The notes under the pieces are model-generated. The model saw only the letters and a program-made list of their open reading frames with translations, searched no databases and was not told the DNA's origin. DNA of 64,000 bases from a virus (taxonomy: Duplodnaviria; Caudoviricetes). The stretch lies in IMG/VR virus record IMGVR_UViG_3300042965_000182, positions 1,919 to 65,918 of that record. One strand, 5' to 3'. Positions 29,280 to 49,956 of the stretch are shown here, piece after piece. Numbering within the stretch: position 1 is the first letter of the stretch; every line of letters begins with the position of its first letter. The position numbers and the translations under genes were made by a program.

Positions 29280-31091
29280 ATGAAAAAGTTAGGTGTTGGT
29301 AATGTTGTTCCAACTTGGTATGGTGGCTCAATAGCAAGAGCCTCTCTTGGTGTAAGAACAGCACAACTAACTTATTATCCACCAAGATGGTTTTCTCCTT
29401 TACTTTCATTTGTTCATTTTTATGTTCCGTGGGACAGGGCTACTTTATATCAATGGATAAGGTATTTTGATACTTGGCACGCTGTTGTTGGTGCTTGTAT
29501 AGACATACATACGATGATGCCTTTATCAAGGTTTTCTTTAAGAGGTGTTCACGACCCGACTATTTTAAGGGTTTACGAGGAATGTTGCGAAGAATTAAAA
29601 GCATTTTTGCTTATGTATTCTCAACTATCAGAGTTTTGGACTATTGGTGAAGTTTTCACTTTACTTTACTGGGATGACAAATTAGGTATTTTTACTGATG
29701 CTGAAATTCTTATGCCTGAATACATTGAAATTAAAAGTTTACCTTTTATGGGTTCTCTTGATATTGAGAAAAATATTTACGAACTTGTTTTAGACCAGTT
29801 TACTTTGGAAATGTTAGAGACACCTGACCCTGATGTTCAAAAGATGTTGATGAAGTTAGACCCTGCTTTACTTGAAACAATCAAAAAGAAAGGAAGGTTA
29901 AGGTTAGATGGCAATTTGTTAATGGTAATGATTAAAAAAAGACATATGTATCAAGATAGGGCTCAACCTATTCTTTTAAGGGTAATGAGGGAACTTATTT
30001 ATGAAAGCAAATTATTAGAAGCAATGTATACAATAGCAGACAGGCATGTTAATCCGAAAGAGATTTGGAAGATAGGTAATGACAATTTCCCAGCTGACCA
30101 AGCACTTTTAGATGCTTATGAAGAACTTATAAGGAATGCTGAACAGCAACCACTTTTTACTTTGGTTGTTCCACATACAGTTTCACTTGATATAGTTGGC
30201 GCTACTGGTAAATTTCCAAAATTATCAGATGAATTAGATTGGGTTGAAAAAAGAATTTTAACTGCTTTACTTTTGAATAAGGCTGTGATACACGGAGAAG
30301 GACCAAATTTTGCTACTGCTTCTGTTGCTATGAGGGCGTTAATGCAAAGGTATATGGAAGTAAGGGCTATGTTAGAAGAGGAATGGACAACGAAAGTGTT
30401 TTTACCTATTGCTTTAAAACACAATTTCTTTGAGGTTACGCAAGCAGAATTAGAACATGGTGTCAGAAGACCTTATAAAGAAAGGAAGCCAATTTTACCT
30501 TATTTTGATTGGCATTATAAAGCAAGGTTATTAGATGACAGTTCATTTAGAGATAGAATAATAGAACTTTACAAAGCAGGTAAGATACCTTTGAAGATAT
30601 TGACTGATGTTCTCGGTTTAGATTACGAATATGTAAAGGTTTACAAAGAAAGGGAAGAAGGGACAATTGTTGACCCGTTCTATGAAGAATGGAGAAAAGA
30701 AGTAATAAAGAAAGGTTTAGAAGGTATTGTTCCAGCACCAAAAGGTGTCAGGAGTTCAGTTGATGAAGTAGAAAAGAAAAATTTAAAGGAAGCACTTGAA
30801 GAAGCAGACAGAAAATTTGAAATTTTCAAGAAGTGGTTAACAAAAACAAGTTTAAAGGAAAATGGCAGAAAGCCTGTTGGTGAAAAAGAAGAAAGTGATG
30901 ATGATTATGAAAAGAAGGAGAAAAAAGTTAAAAAATTGTTAGAAGAAGCAGAAAACATAGAGTTTGATTGGACAACGAGAGGTGGTTTAATAAGGAAATT
31001 AAGGATAGCAGAAGAAATTTTTAAAAATGGAAATTTAGACCTTTTAGCAACAATTTTACCCAGAAAAGAAGAAGAAAACAAAGGAGGGTAA
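29280..31091 (+). CDS. Portal protein
   Basis: WIRYFDTWHAVVGACIDIHTMMPLS, IGEVF, KEIWKIG and GEGPNFATASVA motifs; 603 aa; upstream of protease and capsid. Confidence 0.85.
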   Translation: MKKLGVGNVVPTWYGGSIARASLGVRTAQLTYYPPRWFSPLLSFVHFYVPWDRATLYQWIRYFDTWHAVVGACIDIHTMMPLSRFSLRGVHDPTILRVYEECCEELKAFLLMYSQLSEFWTIGEVFTLLYWDDKLGIFTDAEILMPEYIEIKSLPFMGSLDIEKNIYELVLDQFTLEMLETPDPDVQKMLMKLDPALLETIKKKGRLRLDGNLLMVMIKKRHMYQDRAQPILLRVMRELIYESKLLEAMYTIADRHVNPKEIWKIGNDNFPADQALLDAYEELIRNAEQQPLFTLVVPHTVSLDIVGATGKFPKLSDELDWVEKRILTALLLNKAVIHGEGPNFATASVAMRALMQRYMEVRAMLEEEWTTKVFLPIALKHNFFEVTQAELEHGVRRPYKERKPILPYFDWHYKARLLDDSSFRDRIIELYKAGKIPLKILTDVLGLDYEYVKVYKEREEGTIVDPFYEEWRKEVIKKGLEGIVPAPKGVRSSVDEVEKKNLKEALEEADRKFEIFKKWLTKTSLKENGRKPVGEKEESDDDYEKKEKKVKKLLEEAENIEFDWTTRGGLIRKLRIAEEIFKNGNLDLLATILPRKEEENKGG

Positions 31092-35079: not shown

Positions 35080-36687
35080 ATGGCATTTATTAAGTATGCA
35101 ACAGCAAAAATAATAGCAAGTTATGAGAATGAAGTAGCACTTTTAGAAAGTAATCCTGAATTAGAAAAGGTTTTAAATACATTTAAGGTGATAAAGTTAG
35201 ACCCTTCAAGGTATATGTATTTAAGGAACAGGGCAATCAGTTCATTAGAGACTTGGGGTTGTAATAGGAATGCTGATGGATTTCCTCGTATTGAATTACA
35301 GGAAAATCATCACACTTTCATTAATTCAAGGGTTTCAGTTGACCATAAAGACAATATTATTGTTGGTGTTGTAGTTGACAGTTATTTTGTTCCACCAAAA
35401 GTAGAAATAAAAGACGATATGATTATAAGGTCTGGTGATTATGTTGAGAACATTTTAGCACTTGATAAAAAGGTATTAGAAAGTTATAAGCCTGATGGTA
35501 AAAATTCACTTTTAGATTTAATTGTAAACGGAATAGTAACAGATACAAGTATGGGTGCTATTGTTGGTTATTCCATTTGTTCAGTGCCTACTTGTATGAA
35601 TGTTGCTCATACAGAAAGCGAATATTGTGAGCATATAAAGTCAAAGAAAGGTTCAGTTATAAAACTTGCTTCTGGTATTGATGTGCAGATTTTTGAAATT
35701 TGCAGACAGGTTACATTTTTTGAAGACAGTATTATTGTTCCGCTTGCTTATGGTGGGCTTGCTGGTGGTGAAGGTGCCGACCCTAACGCCAAGTTTTTAG
35801 AAAAGATTGCTACGACACCTTTAAAAACTTACATTGTTTATAGGGACAGGTTTTATTCTGATTTTACTAAAAAAGCACAAATAGAAGAAAGACCACAGGT
35901 TTTAATACCTGAGAAAAAGGTATTAAGGAAAGAGTTTAAGGACGAAGACATAGAGTATACAAAGCAACAATTAAAGAAAAATTTAGAGGAAGAACTATCA
36001 AAAACGATAGTAGTTGAAAAAGAGGAAGTTTCAGATGTTGTAGATTATCTTATAGAACTTCTTAAAAAGGGAACAGAGTTTAATGAAGCGTTAAAACTTG
36101 CTTGGGAACACTTTAAAGGTTTAAAAGAGAAAACAGCACAGGAAAAGAAAAAAGAGGTAATAGTCGTAGATATAGATGGAACACTTTTTGATGTTTCTCA
36201 TAGGTTAAAATACATTGAAAGTCCTCAAAAAGATTGGAAAAGGTTTTTCAGCGAAGAAGAGGTTTCAAAGGACAAGCCTTATCCATCAGTAGTTGAATTT
36301 GTAAACACTTTAAGAGAAGAAACAGGTTTACCAATGGTTGTTTTAACAGGTAGACCTGAAACTTTAAGGGAATTAACAGAGAAACAATTAGAAGAAGCAG
36401 GTGTTAACTATGATGAACTTATAATGAAGCCAAAAGAAAGAAGTTTTGAGAAGGCTGTTTCATTCAAAAAAGATGTTTTAAAGAACTATGTTCCTGTTTA
36501 TTTTATAGATGACGATTACAATAATTTAGCAGTTGTAAAGAAAGAGTTTCCTGATGCTAAGGTGTATCACGCTGATGATGGTAGAATAAAAGAGTTTTTT
36601 ATTGGTGAAGTACTTGAAGAAAAAGTCAGTTTTTGGAAAAGAATATCTTTCAAAAAGGAGGGTAAATGGACAAGAAAATCACTATAA
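35080..36687 (+). CDS. Prohead (capsid maturation) protease fused to a C-terminal PNKP-like HAD phosphatase
   Basis: NRNADGFP..EL, VDH, TSMG and CS..C..C.H in the N-terminal domain; DIDGTL, LTGR, K and IDDD in the C-terminal domain. Confidence 0.8.
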   Translation: MAFIKYATAKIIASYENEVALLESNPELEKVLNTFKVIKLDPSRYMYLRNRAISSLETWGCNRNADGFPRIELQENHHTFINSRVSVDHKDNIIVGVVVDSYFVPPKVEIKDDMIIRSGDYVENILALDKKVLESYKPDGKNSLLDLIVNGIVTDTSMGAIVGYSICSVPTCMNVAHTESEYCEHIKSKKGSVIKLASGIDVQIFEICRQVTFFEDSIIVPLAYGGLAGGEGADPNAKFLEKIATTPLKTYIVYRDRFYSDFTKKAQIEERPQVLIPEKKVLRKEFKDEDIEYTKQQLKKNLEEELSKTIVVEKEEVSDVVDYLIELLKKGTEFNEALKLAWEHFKGLKEKTAQEKKKEVIVVDIDGTLFDVSHRLKYIESPQKDWKRFFSEEEVSKDKPYPSVVEFVNTLREETGLPMVVLTGRPETLRELTEKQLEEAGVNYDELIMKPKERSFEKAVSFKKDVLKNYVPVYFIDDDYNNLAVVKKEFPDAKVYHADDGRIKEFFIGEVLEEKVSFWKRISFKKEGKWTRKSL

Positions 36688-39623: not shown

Positions 39624-40544
39624 ATGGAAGCAATGGCAACAATAAATAAGAAAGACCCACAGGTCTTACAAAGAGAACTGATGAAGAAAGAAGCCGCTTT
39701 AGAGTTAGCGTTCAAGACACAAGTTGGTTTACAAAAGTTAGCACAGGCACTTGCTTCACCTGTCAGGAAGCATCTTGATTATAGAGGGATAGGTAGAAGG
39801 TTATTTGTTACGGAGCCATATGTTGACCCAGGACCAATGTATTACGATGCCGATATAGCAGAGTTTGATGCGGTAATGATAGGAAGAGATGGAACAAGTA
39901 GAATGGTTGTGGTAAGAGCAACAAGAACAATATTACCAGAGTTTGAAGTAGCAGTAAGGGTAAAAATACCGTTTGCTGAGGTAAGAACGAGGAAGTATAA
40001 GGTTGTAGAAAGAGCGAAAGAAAGGTTAAAACAATCATTTGCTATTAGAGAAGATTTACTCATTTTCTCACTTGTCCATGATGCTGTAATAGCAAGTAAT
40101 CAACTAATAACGGCAACAGGAACTTTAATAAAAGAAGACCTTGCCGAAGCATTTTGGAGAGTAGAAAACAGAAGGTTAATACCTCTTAATGTTCTCATTT
40201 CACCAGCAAGTGCTTATGCTATTAGGAATTGGGAAAGAGATCAGATTGAAGAAACAGCAAGGATAGAAATACGAAGAACTGGGTATCTTGGTGTTCTTTG
40301 GGGTGCTAACTTTTTAGTTTCTCAATTGATTAAGAAAGTGAACATTGGCGGAACAGATTACAATGTAGCATATGTTCTACCTGACCCTCAGTTTGTTGGT
40401 TGGTATCCTATTAGGGCAGATGTAGAAGTTATACCTGCTGATACACCTGATTTACTCTTACTTGGATTTGTTGGTTATCTCCAAGCAGGAATGATTTTAC
40501 ACAATATTTGGGCTGTTGCTGGTGTAGCGTTTACACAACCATAA
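39624..40544 (+). CDS. Major capsid protein (HK97 fold, encapsulin/linocin-like)
   Basis: LAQALASPVRKHLDYRGIGRRLF, EDLLIFSL and GYLGVLWGANF motifs; 306 aa; position in head module. Confidence 0.88.
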   Translation: MEAMATINKKDPQVLQRELMKKEAALELAFKTQVGLQKLAQALASPVRKHLDYRGIGRRLFVTEPYVDPGPMYYDADIAEFDAVMIGRDGTSRMVVVRATRTILPEFEVAVRVKIPFAEVRTRKYKVVERAKERLKQSFAIREDLLIFSLVHDAVIASNQLITATGTLIKEDLAEAFWRVENRRLIPLNVLISPASAYAIRNWERDQIEETARIEIRRTGYLGVLWGANFLVSQLIKKVNIGGTDYNVAYVLPDPQFVGWYPIRADVEVIPADTPDLLLLGFVGYLQAGMILHNIWAVAGVAFTQP

Positions 40545-41216: not shown

Positions 41217-42044
41217 ATGGCTTATGTAATCCACGATGTCTCAGAAAGAGAATGGTGTCAATATTTCAAAGACCAGCATGTTGAAGTCATAGTTGAATTC
41301 AAGTATAATAATGTTCCTGTTGATGTAGACAATCCTTCTTTTGATATTTATAAAGACGGTCAACCTGTAAACTTTTACATTCTTAAACCTCTTACAAAGT
41401 CAGACCCACCTGTTATCGGTAAATATTGTGCTACTTTTATGACAACAGGTTTACAAGCAGGTGATTACACTTTTAAAGCAAAAGGTTATTATCAAGGCAA
41501 TGAACTAATTGTAAGTGGTTCATTTAAGTTAGTTGAAGTTCCAAGGAGGCAATGGTATATTGATACATTAAGAGGCATTTTAGCAGACAAGTATCAAATA
41601 GAGGTTCCTTGGGAGTTTTGGACGCACGACCCAACCAAAAGAGAATGGAGGGATGGACAATTAAACGATTATTTAGAGCAAGCAGTAAGGTTTATAAACA
41701 TTTTGCCACCTTCAACAGTTTCCTGGCAACTTGAAAACATACCTTGTTCTTCACTTGTTTTACTTGGTGCACAAATCTTTGCTTTACTTTCAAAAGACAT
41801 AATGGAAGTCCACAATTATTTTGATTATTCAACACCTGTCAGGGTTTCTGTTTACAGAGGTAGAGAATACAGGTCAATTTACCAGTGGATAGAAAGACAA
41901 TTTACAGAGCCATCAAAGTTATTTAAAAAATCTTGGGTTTTAAACACTTTGAGACCAAGAGCGATAGTGTTTCCTCGTATAGCGTTCAGGATTTTAAGAC
42001 CACTTTCAATGGTTTTACATTTTACTTCATATGGTATAGGATAA
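41217..42044 (+). CDS. Head-tail adaptor (neck) protein with Ig-like N-terminus
   Basis: LRGILAD...WRDGQLNDYLEQAV..IN..PP pattern; position. Confidence 0.65.
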   Translation: MAYVIHDVSEREWCQYFKDQHVEVIVEFKYNNVPVDVDNPSFDIYKDGQPVNFYILKPLTKSDPPVIGKYCATFMTTGLQAGDYTFKAKGYYQGNELIVSGSFKLVEVPRRQWYIDTLRGILADKYQIEVPWEFWTHDPTKREWRDGQLNDYLEQAVRFINILPPSTVSWQLENIPCSSLVLLGAQIFALLSKDIMEVHNYFDYSTPVRVSVYRGREYRSIYQWIERQFTEPSKLFKKSWVLNTLRPRAIVFPRIAFRILRPLSMVLHFTSYGIG

Positions 42045-42892
42045 TGAATGAAATTATAACTGAAAAATTTGGTTCTTACAGGTATTATGAAGAAACATTA
42101 AAAAGAGTAAAAAATGTTTCAGTTCAAAGAACTTTTGATGTAAACGGCAAGTATTCAATACAAATAGTTTGGGATACATTTATACCTGGCGTTGAAGTTA
42201 TTGATGGATTTAATGTTTACAGGTCAGTAGATTTGAAGGAATGGAAGAAGTTAAATTCTACACTTATAACAATTAACAATTTTTTAGATAGTGATGCTAA
42301 ACTTTTTATTGGTCAAGATTATTATTACAAGGTTACTTTTATTTCAAATGGTATAGAAAGCAGTTTAGAAGAAGCAGAACCTGTAACTTTTCTTTCATCA
42401 AAAAATAAGGTTGATGGAATGAATTGGAGGTTGTACAATACTTCATTAGAGCATATGAGAAGGTTATCACTTGTTTTAAGACATACAGGTGAAGAGGTGA
42501 TTTTTGGTATAAGACAGTTTGTTGGTCAAAAATGCAGAAGGTGTTATGATTTTGTAGCGAAAAAGGCTACTGACAGTTCTTGCCCTGTTTGTTTTGGAAC
42601 AGGAATAGAGCAAGGTTATAAAGGTATAGAAGGAAGAGTTCATTTTGAGCCTGCTACTTTAACAATTTCAAGAGAACTTGAAGGCTTTATTCCTGCTTAT
42701 GCTTTCAGGTGTTGGACTTTGTCATTCCCTTTACTTTCCTCGCAAGATTTCATTATTAGAAAAAGGACAGGTGAAAGGTATGTAATAAACGAATCTACAC
42801 CTATTATAAATCAAGGTTTAATTCTTATGCAAACTTTAAGAGTTGATATAATGGTTAGAGAACATCCTTTATACAATATACCAGTAGTATGA
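42044..42892 (+). CDS. Head closure/neck protein with FN3-like domain and zinc finger
   Basis: GFNVYRS...YYYKVT; CRRC...CPVCFGTG; ATG at 42044. Confidence 0.65.
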   Translation: MNEIITEKFGSYRYYEETLKRVKNVSVQRTFDVNGKYSIQIVWDTFIPGVEVIDGFNVYRSVDLKEWKKLNSTLITINNFLDSDAKLFIGQDYYYKVTFISNGIESSLEEAEPVTFLSSKNKVDGMNWRLYNTSLEHMRRLSLVLRHTGEEVIFGIRQFVGQKCRRCYDFVAKKATDSSCPVCFGTGIEQGYKGIEGRVHFEPATLTISRELEGFIPAYAFRCWTLSFPLLSSQDFIIRKRTGERYVINESTPIINQGLILMQTLRVDIMVREHPLYNIPVV

Positions 42893-43521: not shown

Positions 43522-45393
43522 ATGGCACAAAGAGACATTATTGTTAGGAGGGTTGTTGGTGCAAGGGCTGTTCCAGCCCCTGTTGGAATACCCGTTATTA
43601 TTCCTGCTGTTATTTGTAGAACACTTGGTAAAAAGACACAAGAAGTTGAAAGTATAACAAGGACACCACCTGGAACTGATTATGTTTGGATTGACAGGTT
43701 AAAAGAAGATACAAAATTACCTTTAAATGAAATAAACGATATAGAGTATGTTTACACTTATACTGAGGGCGATAAAACTTATAGTTTTAAATATGTTTTC
43801 AAAAGAGGAATACATTTCAGGTTTGTTAAGTTAAAAGACCAGGATACACCTGAAGTTGAAGAATATTTACCATTTGAAAATCTTCACATTACTGATTTAA
43901 AAGAAGGTGAAACACGAATTAGGTATGGTATTGATTGGTCGCAAGCACCACTTTTACCACCAGTTGAATTTGAAGCAGAACCAACTCAAAATGGAACTGG
44001 AACAAAGTTTTCTTCTGGTGATTATGAAATTAGGGTTTTTGCTGTAAGTTTACAAGCACCGACATCGGGTAGCGGGGGTCTATATCTTGTTGGTCAATCT
44101 ATTACTAAATTGCTAACATTATCAGAAGATGCTTATATTAGGGTGTCTTGGAAAAGAGTTGATTATGTTAAAGGTTATATTATTGAAATAAAACGGGTTG
44201 GAGGTTCTACTTACAGGTTTTTTGTAAATCCGCATGTTACAGATAGGATTTTTATAGTAGAACTTACAGCGATAACATATATTTCAGGTGGTAAACAAGT
44301 TCCTGAAAGCAACAAAGATTACACTTTGAATTACAAGTATTTAGTAAGGTTAGTTAATCAACCAGTTCTTTATTCAGCAATAGAACAAGTAAGGGAAGAC
44401 CACGGATTAGGTTCAGAAGCATACAATATTGCAAGGTATTTTCTTTCAACTGAACTTGGTAATGCTCCATTTTTAGTGATAGTTGGAGTAGAAGAAGATA
44501 GTTTAGCAGGTTATTTGAATGCTTTAAAAACACTTGAAAGTGTTAATTGTCATTTAATCTTTGCTACTTATTATGGAACTGATGTTTTAGATTTATGGGA
44601 TGCTATGTATCAGCATTGTTTGGCACTTTCTGACCCTGTTACAGGTCAAAGAGAAAGGTATGCTGTTTTTGCTTTGAAAAATGGTATTCAGTGGTATGAC
44701 AATGAACTAAAAACTACTTTACAGCATTTTAGAGCAATGGAAGGTAAAGGTAAAAGGGCTTTCCTTGTTGTCTTTGATGGTGGAGAAATTACACTTAACA
44801 CTTGGATAGAACAAGATGGTTCAATAACAAAAGACAAAAAAGTGTTAACGCAGAGTTTTGACGACATTACATCTCTATTTGGTGCTATGCTTGTTTTTGC
44901 AAGGTATTGTTCATTTAGAGACCCTGCTTCTTCATTAACAGAAAAATCTATACCTGGTTTAACATTTCAGAAGAATTCTTGGGGTGATGATGTTTACTTA
45001 TATTTAAGGGATTTAGGTGCTTTTGTTGTAAGGAACGATTTAGGTTCAGCAGTTGTTGATTTAGATATAAATATGTCGTATGGTTTACTCGGTTTAAATG
45101 ATTCACAACTACCTATCACAATGACAGAAGATTGGATGAAGCAAGATTTAAGAAGTAAGTTAAAAGTTTTCAGAGGTAAAAAGAATATAGAGTTAAGGTT
45201 AGCAAGTGTGATAAACTATATAAAACTAATTCTTGATTCGTATGTTTCTGCTGGTTTAATAACTTCATATGATGAAGGTTCAATAAAAGTTGAAATACTT
45301 TCAACAGGACAACTAAAAGGTTATTTCAAATATACACCTGTTATAATTATCAATCAAATCTTGTTTGAATACGATTTTGAGTTTATTTTATAA
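43522..45393 (+). CDS. Contractile tail sheath protein
   Basis: YLNALKTLE, QRER, SLTEKSIPG and C-terminal YTPVIIINQILFEYDF motifs. Confidence 0.85.
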   Translation: MAQRDIIVRRVVGARAVPAPVGIPVIIPAVICRTLGKKTQEVESITRTPPGTDYVWIDRLKEDTKLPLNEINDIEYVYTYTEGDKTYSFKYVFKRGIHFRFVKLKDQDTPEVEEYLPFENLHITDLKEGETRIRYGIDWSQAPLLPPVEFEAEPTQNGTGTKFSSGDYEIRVFAVSLQAPTSGSGGLYLVGQSITKLLTLSEDAYIRVSWKRVDYVKGYIIEIKRVGGSTYRFFVNPHVTDRIFIVELTAITYISGGKQVPESNKDYTLNYKYLVRLVNQPVLYSAIEQVREDHGLGSEAYNIARYFLSTELGNAPFLVIVGVEEDSLAGYLNALKTLESVNCHLIFATYYGTDVLDLWDAMYQHCLALSDPVTGQRERYAVFALKNGIQWYDNELKTTLQHFRAMEGKGKRAFLVVFDGGEITLNTWIEQDGSITKDKKVLTQSFDDITSLFGAMLVFARYCSFRDPASSLTEKSIPGLTFQKNSWGDDVYLYLRDLGAFVVRNDLGSAVVDLDINMSYGLLGLNDSQLPITMTEDWMKQDLRSKLKVFRGKKNIELRLASVINYIKLILDSYVSAGLITSYDEGSIKVEILSTGQLKGYFKYTPVIIINQILFEYDFEFIL

Positions 45394-45407
45394 AATAAGG
45401 AGATAAA

Positions 45408-46016
45408 ATGAAGAAGGTGATAACTACGACTTTTAGTGTTAGTATGTTGCCTGTTATTGGACAAGCAAATTTAAGAATAAGAGAGGTTAGCGAAGATACT
45501 TTCAATTCTGAACTTGGTGATGATTTTGAAAGTTATGTTGGACACGAAACTACTGCAAAGTTGTTAAGTGAAAAATTAGGTAAGGATATTAAGTTTAACA
45601 GAGCAAATTTAATGTTAGAACCTAATATGAGGTTATTTGTTGCTGTTCCTCAGTTCAGAGTAGAAGTAGCAAGAGAGTTTACACCAGAAGAAATAGAAAA
45701 AGCAAAATTCAGGTATTTTATTATTGAATTAATTCCTTCTGAAAAAGAGGTAAAAGGTGTAAGAGTAGAATTTAAGGTAAAAGATGGTGATTTGTATATT
45801 AACGATTACAAAGTTTTAAAGGCGTGGGAATCAATAGCAGGTTGGTATTGGTTTGGTGTTGAAGAAGTTGAACCTGGTCTTTGGTTTGGTCTTGTTCAAG
45901 GTTTTGAAGACGAATGGAGTTATTTTGATGAAAATGAATTAAAAGAGCTAATGAAAAGAGGTATAGTTTGGGAAATTAAAAAACAAGATTTACCTTTTGC
46001 TGGAAGAAGAAGATAA
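45408..46016 (+). CDS. DUF1874 (AcrIII-1 ring-nuclease-like) domain fused to a DUF2958-like domain
   Basis: TTTFSVSML, FESYVGHETTAKLLSEKLG, FNRANLML, QFR. C-terminal WYWFGVE...FGLVQGFEDEWSYF..EL. Confidence 0.75.
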   Translation: MKKVITTTFSVSMLPVIGQANLRIREVSEDTFNSELGDDFESYVGHETTAKLLSEKLGKDIKFNRANLMLEPNMRLFVAVPQFRVEVAREFTPEEIEKAKFRYFIIELIPSEKEVKGVRVEFKVKDGDLYINDYKVLKAWESIAGWYWFGVEEVEPGLWFGLVQGFEDEWSYFDENELKELMKRGIVWEIKKQDLPFAGRRR

Positions 46017-46087
46017 AAAAAGTCCTTTTTCGGAGTTTTTATAAACATTTAAATTTGTAAACAAAAAATTTTAAGGAGGTAAAAAGT

Positions 46088-46645
46088 ATGGCAGGTTTAG
46101 TTTCAACAAGAGGTTATGGTGTAGGTATACCACCAAGCAATAAGGTTGTCATTCCGTTTTCTTGCACAATTTACGATTTAGAAGGGAATGAAGTTGGTTA
46201 TATGATTTCAATTACTTATGATACGACAAGGAGAGTTGAAAGGATTAGGCATTTAAATGCTTTTGATGCTGGTAGGATAATAGAGCAAGCCCCTGCCCCA
46301 GAAGATTATTCTGTTTCAGGTGAGGGTTTTACTTTATATACTGACGATTTAGCAAATCCTCAGAGTGTAATTGGAAGGTTAACAAAAGAAACAGGTCTGG
46401 CAGTATTTGAATGCTTAAATCAGCAAAGGATACCTTTTAATATTGTAAAAGAAGTCGTTCATCCTGCTACTGGTATAGGTTATCAAACGATTTTCTATGA
46501 ATGTTGGTTAGCAAGGTATTCAGAGACTTTTGCTACAAGGAATGTTGTTGTTTCAGCAAATGTTTCAATACAGCCAACTTTTGTTGAAAGCAGGATTGTT
46601 CAAGTTTCTGGTGCTGGTGGTAAACAACCAATTCCGAGAAGTTAA
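46088..46645 (+). CDS. Tail tube protein
   Basis: VGYMISITYDTTRRVERI and FYECWLARYS motifs; follows the sheath. Confidence 0.8.
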   Translation: MAGLVSTRGYGVGIPPSNKVVIPFSCTIYDLEGNEVGYMISITYDTTRRVERIRHLNAFDAGRIIEQAPAPEDYSVSGEGFTLYTDDLANPQSVIGRLTKETGLAVFECLNQQRIPFNIVKEVVHPATGIGYQTIFYECWLARYSETFATRNVVVSANVSIQPTFVESRIVQVSGAGGKQPIPRS

Positions 46646-46657
46646 AAGGAGTAAAGT

Positions 46658-47137
46658 ATGTCTCCAATTGACATAAGGTTAACTGATTTTGAAGTGCCAA
46701 ATTTAAACGATTTACCTTCTGATTATCAAGACCTTTTAGATTTGATTAATCTTGGTAAGTATGAATGGGTTGTTCAGTTATACAATTATGAGTTTAAGAT
46801 GGGTTCGCTTTGGGAATGGGAATGGCGTGAAATTTACAGAAAACTTTCAGGTTTAGATTTACTTGCAAAAGACAGATTAATAAAGGTAGAAGTTTTAACA
46901 AAAGCAATAATAGAGGTAAAATCATATTCAACGAATAAAACTTGGGAATTTAAGGAAGAAAGCCAAAAAGTTATTTTAAGACATTTATTACTTTCTATGG
47001 ATAAAAAAGTGATAGATGATTTATATGAAGGATTTAATTATGGTGAAGAAATTGCTTTAAAAAAGTTTAAAGAAAAACTTGAAGATATAAAAAGGAGGGT
47101 AAAAAGCGATTTTTTCGTGGATTTTGGAAGTTATTAA
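46658..47137 (+). CDS. Tail assembly chaperone (short form)
   Basis: Follows the tube gene; slippery T TTT TTC near the 3' end. Confidence 0.7.
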   Translation: MSPIDIRLTDFEVPNLNDLPSDYQDLLDLINLGKYEWVVQLYNYEFKMGSLWEWEWREIYRKLSGLDLLAKDRLIKVEVLTKAIIEVKSYSTNKTWEFKEESQKVILRHLLLSMDKKVIDDLYEGFNYGEEIALKKFKEKLEDIKRRVKSDFFVDFGSY

Positions 47138-47409
47138 ATGCATTAGGTTATAAAATACCAACTTCGGAATTTTTTACAATTTTAAAAAATCCATTTTTAT
47201 TAACATTTATAATTGAAAACATTAAATGTGATTACGAAGAAATGAGACAAAGATTAAAAGAGCAGAAACCAATTCGTTCAGTTGAAGAGATAAAAGATGA
47301 GGTTGTAAAAGAATTAGAAAGAAGACAAAAAACAGGTTTACTAAAATCATATAAACATTTAAGAGAAATAGAAAAAGTTTCAGAAGATTTAGATTATCCT
47401 GAAATATGA
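47110..47409 (+). CDS. -1 frameshift extension of the tail assembly chaperone
   Basis: The -1 frame reads FFRGFWKLLNALGYKIPTSEF...DYPEI to a stop at 47409 and fills the apparent gap exactly. Confidence 0.7.
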   Translation, partial: FFRGFWKLLNALGYKIPTSEFFTILKNPFLLTFIIENIKCDYEEMRQRLKEQKPIRSVEEIKDEVVKELERRQKTGLLKSYKHLREIEKVSEDLDYPEI

Positions 47410-48131
47410 TGGATATTTTACAAGACCAATTTGTTAAAAGAACGCTTGTCCGTTTAGAAAAATGTTTTATAATAGATTTAGATAGGTTTTCTTTGCAATA
47501 TGATGACAAGGTTTTAGATAACATTAGAGCGTTTGCTATTACTCAACTTTCAAGAGTTGCTGGTTTAGTTTCTGGTGTTTCACAATCAACAGAGTATTTA
47601 GTAGAAAGTTCTATTGCTTTAATGAGAAAATTTGGCTTACAGGGTGTTTACATTTTCAGGTTAAATCCAAGACAAATCTCTTATGGTGATAGAAAATTAG
47701 TAAATGTTTACAGGTATGGTTTTGGTTCATTTGATGTTCAATATTTTGGTAATGATTTAATTTCAGCGACAATAGATGGAAGGACAGGTCTTTTAACACC
47801 TCATTATGAACTAATCAAAAAAGGTGTTACTGATATTAGGTTATCACTTGGTTATTTAAAACTTATAGAATTAGAAACATTTTTCAGGGATTCACCTCCA
47901 AAGTTGCTTTTTGGTTTCCTTGAAAGGTTTTATTATGGGTTTATGTTAGAATTTTCATATTCTATGTCAGCAGAAAATCCATACAACATTGATTACAAAA
48001 TAGTTATGAATTTACATCCAAACAGGTATTGGTATGGTGATGTTTTAAGAGGATTTAACGATTTCAATACGGAGATTTTAGATAAGGTTCAATTAATGTC
48101 AGAGCAACCTATTAATTTTTATATGCCTTAA
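47406..48131 (+). CDS. Probable tail-tube initiator / baseplate protein
   Basis: FRLNPRQISY...VQYFGNDL...YYGFMLEFSYSMSAENPY..DY pattern. Confidence 0.6.
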   Translation: MMDILQDQFVKRTLVRLEKCFIIDLDRFSLQYDDKVLDNIRAFAITQLSRVAGLVSGVSQSTEYLVESSIALMRKFGLQGVYIFRLNPRQISYGDRKLVNVYRYGFGSFDVQYFGNDLISATIDGRTGLLTPHYELIKKGVTDIRLSLGYLKLIELETFFRDSPPKLLFGFLERFYYGFMLEFSYSMSAENPYNIDYKIVMNLHPNRYWYGDVLRGFNDFNTEILDKVQLMSEQPINFYMP

Positions 48132-48135
48132 TAAT

Positions 48136-49956
48136 ATGCCAACGAGAAGAAGAATAGAAGGGGAAGGTGAGACTTTGCGTTCAGAGATAGTTGAAGAATT
48201 ACAGGAGCGTTTAAAGGATATAACTGCGTTTTTTGAAGAATTAGGTGGGAAAGTTGAAGAGCAATCTGATATTTATAGAGAAGCAGAAAGAGATATGAGA
48301 AGGTTTTATACAAGGTTAGGAGAAGTTCGTGAAGTTTTAGAAAAGAAAAAGGTAGCAGTAGAAGAACTAACTTTAAAATTAGAAAAAGCAAGAGCTATTT
48401 ACGAGAGATTAGAAGATGTATTAGAAGAAAGATTTCCAAGGGAACTTGAAGAACTTCGTAAAAAATTACAGGAAATGTCAGAAATTATTGAAAGAAGTTC
48501 AAGAAGTTTTGGTAGAATGTTGGCAGAAGGTATACCACTTGAAGATTTAGGTAGGTTTGGTAGAACTATTAGTGTAGTAGGCAGTGCTTTAAGAAGGTGG
48601 TTTGGTATTACTATACCGACAACTGTTTCTGAAATGTTAAGGGATTTAGTAAGGGGAATAGAAGATTTCAATACAAGGTTATTACGATTAAGGGAGACTA
48701 TACCACTTGCTTTTATAGAGGCTGGTGAAATAACAAGGACAGGTATGTTTGCTATTCAGCAGGAAATAGAAGGGTTTGCAAGGGCTATGAGGATGGAAAG
48801 AAGAGAATTTTTAGAAGTTTTCAGGGAATTAAGGGCTACTGGTCTTTTATATGCTATGAATGAATATCAAAGGATAATGACTTTACAAGACCTTTATTCA
48901 CAAGGTGAAATAAGTGCAAGACAATTTATTAGTGGTATTTCAGATGCAATAAGGGAATTAAGAGGGTTAGCAATTGCTCTTGGTATGACTGATAATCAAA
49001 TTTTAAGGTTTACGGAGACTTGGTCAAGATTACTTATGACAAGAGATGTAGATGAAGTTCAATCCGCTTTGGTTGCTTTACAAAGAAGAGCAGTAGAGGG
49101 TGGTATAGGTATGGAACAACTTACAAGGTTTATGGAGCAACTTACTGATAGAACAAGATGGTATGGTATTAATCTATTTGAACTTTTAGGTATAACAAGG
49201 GATTTAACAGAACTTATAAGGACAGGTGCTATTACTACACAAGATTTCATAAATGCTTTAATTAGTGCTCGTCAGCAACTTTCACCTGACAGAGCAGGAA
49301 CAATCTTTTACTTTTTAGCGAATTTTTCTGATGACCCTGCTGTTAGAAGGATGTTAGAAGGTTTTGAAAGGTCAGGTTTACAACCTGTTTTAGCAGTTAT
49401 GTATTTAATGAGGGAGCCTTGGGAAAGGTTTAGAGAAACTTGGGATGTATTAACTAATGAAGAAAGAAGAAGGATAACTTCGCTTTTAGAAAGGTTAGGG
49501 TTTGTTGAAAATGGGATGATACAATGGAACAGGTTAATAGAGACAGCAAACAGGTTTCAGGCAGAGTTTGTTTCAGCAGTTCAAAGGTATACAAATTTAA
49601 TACCTGACCCGAGCGTAAGATTTTATATGGAGCAAGAACTTTTAAGGCAAGTTGGTATAAATGTTGGTTCACTTCAAGAGTTAGCGGTTACAACTTCATT
49701 AGCAACAAGGATGCATCAAATGACAACAGAAGGTATAAAAGAAGAAATGAGAGCAAGGGTAGAAAGAGACGAGGTTCTCGGCAGAGGTTTAAGAGAACTT
49801 GAAAAATATACAACTTTACTAACAGATGCTTTTTCAGAATTAAGGAAGACAGTTGGTGATTTGGCTGATTTTATTAACAGGGAAATTTTAAGGGAACCAC
49901 AAAGGGTTGTTCCTACTGTTCCATCACCTATTTTTGCCCCTGAATTACCGAAATGA
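48136..49956 (+). CDS. Tape measure protein
   Basis: Long helical Arg/Glu-rich protein located after the chaperones. Confidence 0.7.
   Translation: MPTRRRIEGEGETLRSEIVEELQERLKDITAFFEELGGKVEEQSDIYREAERDMRRFYTRLGEVREVLEKKKVAVEELTLKLEKARAIYERLEDVLEERFPRELEELRKKLQEMSEIIERSSRSFGRMLAEGIPLEDLGRFGRTISVVGSALRRWFGITIPTTVSEMLRDLVRGIEDFNTRLLRLRETIPLAFIEAGEITRTGMFAIQQEIEGFARAMRMERREFLEVFRELRATGLLYAMNEYQRIMTLQDLYSQGEISARQFISGISDAIRELRGLAIALGMTDNQILRFTETWSRLLMTRDVDEVQSALVALQRRAVEGGIGMEQLTRFMEQLTDRTRWYGINLFELLGITRDLTELIRTGAITTQDFINALISARQQLSPDRAGTIFYFLANFSDDPAVRRMLEGFERSGLQPVLAVMYLMREPWERFRETWDVLTNEERRRITSLLERLGFVENGMIQWNRLIETANRFQAEFVSAVQRYTNLIPDPSVRFYMEQELLRQVGINVGSLQELAVTTSLATRMHQMTTEGIKEEMRARVERDEVLGRGLRELEKYTTLLTDAFSELRKTVGDLADFINREILREPQRVVPTVPSPIFAPELPK

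Follow-up and report, generated by a model that had tools for sequence, protein, structure and literature searches.

The 64,000-nucleotide stretch of DNA analyzed here, referred to below as the window, comes from a virus (Duplodnaviria; Caudoviricetes) and corresponds to positions 1,919 to 65,918 of the IMG/VR record IMGVR_UViG_3300042965_000182. The source record is 65,918 bases long, its completeness is estimated by CheckV at ~40%, and every long open reading frame (ORF) of the window lies on the plus strand. The analysis concerned an ORF of 202 codons, which runs from ATG to TAA and occupies exactly positions 45408..46016 (+). An earlier note on this DNA, made from the sequence alone, had read the product as a ring nuclease of the AcrIII-1 type fused to a second domain and had placed its gene between the tail sheath and tail tube genes. 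We found that the ORF is a genuine two-domain fusion, in which residues 1-110 (N-domain) belong to the DUF1874/AcrIII-1 family and residues ~120-202 (C-domain) form a domain that is remotely related to DUF2958. Translation confirmed all the motifs quoted in the note: FSVSML (residues 9-14), SYVGHETTAKLLS (42-54, including His46), N64-R65, and Q82-F83-R84.

The N-domain was identified by profile, sequence, and structure comparison. Residues 19-102 matched Pfam family PF08960 (STIV_B116-like, equivalent to DUF1874) along profile positions 14-100 of 101, with a score of 38.8 bits against a cut-off of 26 and an E-value of 1.1e-9; the match was repeated on the whole genome record (39.6 bits). The fusion protein also matched phrog_5063 (1.6e-13), and sequence searches of the PDB returned AFV3-109 (2j6b, 1.2e-4), SIRV1 gp29 (2x4i, 3.2e-4), the gp29 H47A variant crystallised with cyclic tetra-adenylate (cA4) (6scf), and STIV B116. 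An AlphaFold2 model of the whole protein was built from a 51-row alignment and had a mean predicted local distance difference test score (pLDDT) of 81.9. The Foldseek search against the PDB gave 2j6b (4.4e-4, TMt 0.61), 6scf_E (9.9e-4), 2x4i_C (2.2e-3, TMt 0.70), and 2j85 (5.1e-3), each with a probability of 1.00, and matched the Csx1-Crn2 structures 8y7f/8y7g at E-values of 1.6e-3 to 4e-3. The ten best matches were DUF1874 proteins without exception, and the identity to solved structures was only 23-25%. Pfam and Foldseek agreed in assigning this half of the protein to DUF1874, and the pattern that the note had described for residues 1 to ~110 was upheld by a PF08960 score above the cut-off, an AcrIII-1-type fold, and the retention of H46.

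The putative active site was examined by HMMER alignment, in which H46 of the G-H motif (VGHETT) aligned with H47 (IGHDST) of SIRV1 gp29. The latter residue is reported as catalytic and absolutely conserved, and the gp29 side chains that contact cA4 (N8, S11, N13, S49, T50, R66, Q81, and R85) are termed there 'semi or fully conserved' (bioRxiv 10.1101/778746). H47, R66, R85, S11, S49, and T50 of gp29 correspond to H46, R65, R84, S10, T48, and T49 of the window protein. Identical or conservatively replaced residues are found at five of the eight cA4-contact positions (S10, T48, T49, R65, and R84), and H46, R65, and R84 are unchanged in all 11 aligned relatives. The N-domain is a member of the DUF1874/AcrIII-1 family and is very probably an active cA4 ring nuclease.

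The complex prediction with two copies of the protein gave a score of 0.47, versus 0.00 for the best of three controls; among proteins of solved structure, 20 of 30 same-chain pairs attained this score, as did 1 of 23 single chains. Between runs, at least 57% of contacts agreed, the partner pLDDT was at least 78, and the confident contacts were confined to residues 8-27, 78-80, and 102-112, all within the N-domain. Because AcrIII-1 dimers have already been solved, the score may echo the known structures, and we treat the predicted homodimer as a likeness and not as independent proof.

The remaining ~90 amino acids had been described in the note as a separate domain, which agrees with the break in identity at residue ~110, with a protein family of their own, and with the model of the C-domain alone (pLDDT 94.1), which comprises six beta strands, a helix, a short strand, and a second short helix. 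The resemblance to DUF2958 stood as remote homology, not as a direct family match. Residues 110-202 gave no match to PF11171 (DUF2958) in Pfam at E ≤ 10, and the whole protein gave none at E ≤ 1 (cut-off 21 bits). The other Pfam and PHROG matches of this half (LRR_10, 0.092; DUF7079, 0.14; phrog_6686, 0.3) were rejected as noise. A phmmer search with the C-terminal half against 1.84 billion representatives returned 171 proteins at E ≤ 1e-3, mostly of 80-120 aa, of which 50 reached E ≤ 1e-10. An alignment of 53 homologues was used as profile A1, and 10 of the 53 matched PF11171, with a best E-value of 8.5e-7. The phmmer match P0160 (1.3e-4 over the 1.84 billion), which itself passes PF11171 with 34.5 versus 21 bits and is a true DUF2958 protein, was aligned with A1 by hhalign with a probability of 98% and an E-value of 1.5e-13 over 59 columns. 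In the Atlas, 27 of 30 feature matches of the C-domain fell in clusters with PF11171 on 20-29% of members. The homology of the C-domain to DUF2958, as judged from these profile comparisons, is remote but sound.

When profile A1 was run against 5.8 billion proteins, 1014 clusters were obtained, mostly of stand-alone proteins of ~95 aa (mostly 80-110 aa). None of the 120 best family members carried a precomputed Pfam domain, and any names were 'hypothetical protein'. On viral contigs, the domain was encoded at 51 loci, nearly always by a stand-alone gene of 81-110 codons. The C-domain family, a very large and unnamed sister family of DUF2958, is mostly stand-alone and mostly phage-borne; on plasmids, the genes of true DUF2958 are likewise small and stand-alone. 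The remark in the note that stand-alone forms are usual holds for both the DUF1874 and the C-domain families. Conservation was scored over 234 family members, and the conserved positions are aromatic and acidic. The window protein keeps E141, S142, G145, W146, Y147, W148, F149, E152, G161, V163, Q164, G165, E169, W170, F173, E177, and W188, followed by the G-R-R tail; residue 171 is S in the window protein and G in about 90% of the family. A sequence profile search of the PDB with A1 gave nothing meaningful (best E-value 0.93), the C-domain had no tblastn match at 1e-3 in cultured phages or in plasmids, and BFVD gave one close unnamed viral homologue (2.8e-9) and no annotated one. The idea that the C-domain is a strongly acidic DNA mimic was rejected, as it is only mildly acidic (pI 4.9), like its family (median pI 5.2).

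Several homologues carry additional segments. Weak C2H2 zinc-finger matches, all under the Pfam cut-offs, were seen in four long homologues (P0025, P0028, P0069, and P0165; 576-1174 aa), which hints at a DNA-associated role or at a spread beyond phages. Other homologues have zinc-ribbon or zinc-finger-like segments, and one is joined to LPD29. Multi-stretch matches in P0112, P0152, and P0153, which are MG2/SprB-type repeat proteins, were set aside as probable repeat noise. On a plasmid record of Prevotella nigrescens (NZ_CP082843.1; L056 3717-10001), true DUF2958 (35.3 bits) lies within a 2094-aa protein, where it spans residues 444-531 and is flanked by an N6-adenine methylase and an SNF2 helicase; the gene adjoins topB, DUF4099, and an AbiEii toxin gene. 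DUF2958 was also found near a strawberry-notch gene. LPD29 is named in the description of the polyvalent proteins of phages and conjugative elements, which combine 2-15 domains of disparate activity and in which domains degrading host signalling nucleotides were anticipated (Iyer et al. 2017, PMC5512222). The methylase-SNF2 protein with DUF2958, whose architecture is a classic polyvalent one, and the LPD29 fusion fit an invasion-phase role. By analogy, these links to polyvalent proteins are the best argument that the C-domain may act in the invasion phase or in counter-defence; the case for counter-defence rests on context, and the evidence is mixed.

The neighbourhood of the stand-alone C-domain genes was surveyed at 40 non-redundant loci, with up to two genes of about 85 aa or more taken on each side. 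The resulting 95 proteins matched 16 PHROG families at E ≤ 1e-5, none of them a head or tail family. Those with a name comprised DNA-binding, DNA-repair, integrase, phosphohydrolase, and GroEL families. The most economical guess is that the C-domain is a nucleic-acid- or protein-binding module, in view of the zinc-ribbon or zinc-finger-like segments of other homologues and of its own SH3-like barrel, aromatic face, and basic tail.

The joining of the two domains is rare. Among 290 proteins compared, the C-domain profile matched 271 and the N-domain profile 16, and the window protein alone matched both. No second fusion was returned by a 111-354 aa search of 5.8 billion proteins, the single-protein search of viral contigs for related loci gave 0 relatives, and no second copy of the C-domain was found in the source record or in two related records, both fragments. 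Such rarity would suit an assembly error, or a recent frameshift or stop loss merging two adjacent genes, an explanation which we consider very improbable. The frame is intact in hot-spring metagenome contigs of two further studies, at ~98-99% (X5) and 90-95% (X6) identity, and contigs from both span the domain junction (X5 records 5-7; X6 records 15-17). The sole indel within the ORF is a 1-nt deletion in the A-run at the stop (X5), by which TAA is preserved. The C-domain keeps all but one of the conserved family positions, and the linker ends exactly where the stand-alone homologues start. We conclude that the ORF is a genuine two-domain fusion and not an artefact. As to the same fusion elsewhere, variants of it occur in the two other hot-spring studies, and a second, separate case was not returned from the 5.8 billion proteins. 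Within the X5 and X6 variants of positions 44900-46700, changes inside the ORF concentrate in loop 69-73 (M69, N73).

Identity to the closest relatives of the N-domain ends sharply at the domain boundary. The closest stand-alone relative has 98 aa and is 81% identical. Nine longer proteins (168-180 aa) match residues 1-110 with 68-76% identity and then continue into an unrelated helical tail, which passes the Pfam Rubrerythrin (PF02915) cut-off (24.3 versus 22.8 bits). DUF1874 with a rubrerythrin-like tail is a second undescribed AcrIII-1 architecture. The tail, of ~65 aa, is a half-ferritin-like hairpin that contains an E-x-x-H motif and would pair with its second copy in a DUF1874 dimer. Relatives of this kind with 75-76% identity are encoded at L002 8001-8543, L003 8001-8543 (the same phage as L059), and L060 2197-2487. 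In these phages, the gene with the rubrerythrin-like tail is likewise part of the structural module; a head-tail-connector-like gene precedes it, and the gene that follows it has a C-terminal half common to tail fibre or spike proteins, including one of a Thermocrinis virus. Three proteins shared by the window and these carrier phages (L002, L003/L059, and L060) are 29-31% identical, versus 75-76% for the DUF1874 domain, which suggests that the nuclease module was exchanged between distantly related hot-spring phages or is unusually conserved among them. These alignments show that, in hot-spring phages, the C-terminus of a nearly identical nuclease domain is a swap site: it is either bare or extended by a rubrerythrin-like hairpin or a DUF2958-like barrel.

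The genes around the fusion gene were examined next, and the features of the locus are collected in Table 1. The upstream gene was assigned to the tail sheath by its PHROG matches and by BLASTP in a 4-protein database, where it matched the annotated sheath protein of Bacillus phage G, gp178, at 2.3e-5; its tblastn search against cultured phages gave no match at 1e-3. For the downstream gene, which had no Pfam, PHROG, or PDB sequence match, the Atlas lead was a Phi812 tail tube cluster, 60% of whose members carry PF26461; the score was 0.95, with 173 features in common. These results, with phage G gp178 and gp180 as counterparts, support the placement of the fusion gene between sheath and tube that was put forward in the note, the tube call being probable and of moderate strength. 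Sheath and tube genes are usually adjacent, as the note had it, but not universally, since phage G has a tube paralogue, gp179, between them. The order in phage G is sheath gp178, gp179, gp180, tail chaperones, and tape measure; gp179 and gp180 (L055 5084-6402) are paralogous, and the tube candidate of the window matched both (6.6e-12 and 8e-9 in the 4-protein database). The candidate gp179 was rejected as a counterpart of the fusion gene, as it is a tube paralogue and matched neither domain profile.

Table 1. Positions of the fusion gene, its parts, and other genes of the window that are discussed in the text.
Feature	Position	Strand	Basis or remark
603-aa protein shared with the carrier phages	29280..31091	+	29-31% identity
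535-aa protein shared with the carrier phages	35080..36687	+	29-31% identity
Major capsid protein shared with the carrier phages	39624-40544	+	29-31% identity
Tail sheath gene, 623 aa	43522..45393	+	phrog_279 2.5e-5, phrog_23 3.4e-3
Ribosome-binding site AAGGAG	45397..45402	+	5 nt before the fusion ATG; strong site
N-terminal DUF1874/AcrIII-1-type ring-nuclease domain, residues 1-110	45408..45737	+	PF08960, PDB sequence matches, Foldseek, predicted dimer contacts
His46 codon, counterpart of catalytic His47 of SIRV1 gp29	45543..45545	+	HMMER alignment to 2x4i/6scf
Linker SEKEVKGVR, residues ~111-119	45738..45764	+	Similarity of closest DUF1874 relatives ends here; pLDDT 63 at residues 111-120
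C-terminal DUF2958-related small beta-barrel, residues ~120-202	45765..46013	+	Family searches, hhalign, model
Stop codon TAA	46014..46016	+	71-nt intergenic gap after it
Probable tail tube gene, 185 aa	46088..46645	+	tblastn to phage G gp180 'virion structural protein', 1e-5
Tape-measure-like gene	48136..49956	+	phrog_1272 5e-4, phrog_167 3.9e-3; anchors the tail-module context

Only 14 nt separate the stop of the sheath gene from the ATG of the fusion gene, and because of this spacing we infer, as the simplest reading, that the two are co-transcribed. Between positions 42500 and 48500, promoter-like sites (29 versus a shuffled expectation of 24.2+/-4.6) and terminator-like sites (2 versus 2.0) showed no excess. 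The G+C content of the fusion gene (0.29-0.33) is not anomalous next to that of its neighbours (0.30-0.36). Between the tube candidate and the tape-measure-like gene lie ORFs of 159, 55, and 241 aa (46658-47137, 47242-47409, and 47406-48131), of which the latter two overlap by 4 nt; of the two that were tested, neither matched a family. Their position suggests that the tail assembly chaperone pair may be among the three. In the head-tail region, two long plus-strand ORFs in different frames (41217-42044 and 41933-42892) overlap by 112 nt, which could reflect a wrongly chosen TTG start or a programmed frameshift. The 535-aa protein matched polynucleotide kinase families with its C-terminal half (phrog_415, 1.1e-25; phrog_505, 2.1e-18) and phrog_2774 (2.4e-14) with its N-terminal half. 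It could serve in RNA-end repair and would then complement a ring nuclease against defences based on RNases.

These data are best accounted for, with a probability of roughly one half, by a two-domain late gene of an uncultured hot-spring phage of the myovirus type, in which a working cA4 ring nuclease has gained a binding module and is translated from the tail operon. Two copies of the protein would dimerise through the N-domain, and the dimer interface would form the cA4 pocket. The loop with R84 would then close over cA4, and H46 of each protomer would protonate the leaving group, so that cA4 would be cut into linear A2 products and the cA4-activated CARF effectors of type III CRISPR silenced. 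The C-domain would be an independent module gained by domain accretion, an SH3-like beta-barrel with a conserved aromatic/acidic face and a basic GRR tail, which would hang off each protomer outside the predicted dimer interface. It may bind nucleic acid or a host protein, for host takeover or counter-defence, and the fusion would then be a minimal 'polyvalent' protein. Transcription-dependent type III immunity is triggered by late transcripts, and translation from the tail operon would supply the nuclease when these are at their peak; such immunity is reviewed as effective in middle to late expression (PMC8284326).

Several observations weigh against this reading. Three of the gp29 contact residues are changed (N8 to T7, N13 to S12, and Q81 to V80, with Q82 lying two positions further), and the N-domain blocks of the AlphaFold2 model have a pLDDT of 51-85, i.e. 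moderate confidence only. The model of the C-domain had no Foldseek match in the PDB at E ≤ 1e-3, and the wide VIA search found no chain at Z ≥ 5 (best Z 4.3) and only SH3, Tudor/Spindlin, Sm, KOW, and FeoA barrels; the C-terminal half yielded remote DUF2958 homology, but no solved structure convincingly like it. The neighbours of its stand-alone homologues are mostly small genes of no known family. A DUF1874 gene was found in 0 of 45 viral records with a stand-alone C-domain (50 of the 51 loci minus 5 without an available record), including 0 of 14 that were at least 90% complete, which argues that the two domains are not generally coupled. The AcrIII-1 homologue of SIRV2, a middle/late gene, is reported to have had no anti-CRISPR effect in native infection and to have bound a host methyltransferase instead (bioRxiv 10.1101/2023.01.10.523387). 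A host with a type III system and cA4 effectors is assumed: scans of genome collections with the N-domain profile A2 and with the 603-aa protein gave 0 relatives and no host hint, and the window holds no tRNA genes that could give one.

The late position of the gene in the tail operon, from which the note had inferred strong late expression or packaging, cuts both ways, as it could reflect late supply of the nuclease, packaging, or a role other than anti-CRISPR. We rank late supply against immunity triggered by late transcripts first because it requires no extra assumption, and the timing itself is deduced from the gene order. It is doubtful, in our judgment, that the late DUF1874 domain is, as was proposed for SIRV2 gp37, not an anti-CRISPR in practice, and that it binds a host or phage protein or clears cA4 so as to delay dormancy before lysis, with the C-domain as a targeting or oligomerisation add-on that has no defence role. 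Such a function would agree with the late-operon position, with the report that an early anti-defence promoter precedes only 2 of 24 crenarchaeal viral ring-nuclease genes (bioRxiv 10.1101/2023.01.10.523387), and with the half-ferritin-like hairpin of the relatives, whose pairing in the dimer fits tails that merely stabilise or tether. On the other hand, the catalytic residue and most cA4-contact residues are kept at 75-81% identity across phages whose core genes are ~30% identical, which argues for selection on the nuclease itself, and the partner reported for SIRV2 gp37 is restricted to crenarchaea according to the same preprint. More weight, although we still hold it unlikely, is due to the proposal that the protein is two-headed, with a C-domain that inhibits a second, unrelated host defence, e.g. 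one acting on incoming DNA. The C-domain family is plentiful in phages as small stand-alone genes amid small genes of no known family, it functions independently, with no co-occurrence with DUF1874 elsewhere, and the ring nuclease C-terminus is a swap site for other modules. The LPD29 fusion of one homologue and the presence of DUF2958 in the methylase-SNF2 polyvalent protein of a conjugative-type element, and near the strawberry-notch gene, point the same way. Against this, DUF2958 is listed solely as of unknown function in PMC9127768, the fold of the C-domain gives no hint past an SH3-like barrel, the family is only mildly acidic, unlike DNA-mimic inhibitors, and the zinc-finger and zinc-ribbon fusions of other homologues suit plain nucleic-acid binding. 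If the two-headed proposal were true, the small DUF2958-like proteins would be a large stand-alone anti-defence family, and the fusion would merely co-deliver two inhibitors.

A third possibility is that the ring nuclease is built into the particle, perhaps via the C-domain, and ejected with the DNA, so that cA4 would be destroyed from the first minute of the following infection. This would solve the timing problem of late-expressed AcrIII-1 homologues, and the gene is embedded in the tail operon, as the genes of the rubrerythrin-tailed relatives are in a structural module. Phage polyvalent proteins, which also adjoin late virion genes, are predicted to be packaged and injected (PMC5512222), and DUF2958 proper occurs within a polyvalent protein. 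We nevertheless regard virion delivery as rather improbable. The fusion protein is without the MuF, portal, and zincin peptidase domains that mark packaged polyvalent proteins in the same source, and a dimeric enzyme of ~46 kDa has no evident place in the sheath-tube assembly. As head and tail families were not found beside its stand-alone genes, the C-domain is not a general virion-association tag. Equally hard to favor is the broader version in which the orphan DUF2958-like family and DUF2958 are invasion-phase counter-defence modules and a virion-carried fusion disarms type III signalling before phage expression. We continue to prefer the late-supplied ring nuclease with an accreted binding module.

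AcrIII-1 is reported as the commonest ring nuclease in phage genomes, with 36 of 28,114 genomes in one survey (PMC12409355). The protein described here places a known anti-CRISPR enzyme in a two-domain architecture that is new, and its gene has an unusual genomic position. In the main texts searched, the only published DUF1874 fusion that we found is the host Csx1-Crn2, AcrIII-1 being otherwise described as a small protein of one domain. The fusion in the window gives a very large family of unknown function its first functional association, and it bears on the dispute whether viral ring nucleases that are expressed late are anti-CRISPRs at all. It is also a natural case for asking whether ring nucleases are virion-delivered or virion-timed.

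To our knowledge, neither DUF2958 nor the C-domain family has a known function. Both share a W-x-W aromatic strand, FG-x-V-x-G, and E-x-E-W-G-Y-F-S, and they differ in the C-terminal motif, which is W-E-I...D-L-P-x-A-G-R-R in the phage family, whereas DUF2958 has V-E-R-D at that place. Like polyvalent proteins, the fusion protein joins unrelated modules in one polypeptide, and its gene lies beside late virion genes. Two disparate domains, the lower limit of the 2-15 range, and a neighbourhood of late/virion genes are present. Unlike typical polyvalent proteins, it has only two domains and 202 aa, and MuF, portal, and zincin peptidase domains were not found; DUF1874 and DUF2958 are not named in the main text of PMC5512222, to which this comparison was confined. 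As in Csx1-Crn2 of Marinitoga (8y6z/8y7f/8y7g; PMC7293037), a DUF1874 domain occurs in a fusion, and the Crn2 domain matches the model structurally. In Csx1-Crn2, a host CARF-HEPN effector is described as the N-terminal partner, the whole being a self-limiting defence enzyme (PMC7293037), whereas the fusion in the window is phage-borne and its partner is C-terminal, unrelated, and DUF2958-like. A close likeness is seen to AcrIII-1 (SIRV1 gp29), AFV3-109, STIV B116, and B. subtilis YddF, with which the window protein shares the Pfam family, the fold, the GH histidine, and the counterparts of R65 and R84, as well as, by prediction, the homodimer formed through the DUF1874 domain. The annotated viral homologues of DUF1874 also come from viruses of thermophiles in six of six matching records (Thermoanaerobacterium phage THSA-485A, SIFV2, Aquificae Conch Spring virus, and Hydrogenobaculum phage 1). 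Unlike the AcrIII-1 group, whose members are single-domain proteins of about 100-120 aa, the window protein adds a C-domain of ~85 aa, and its gene sits in a tail operon.

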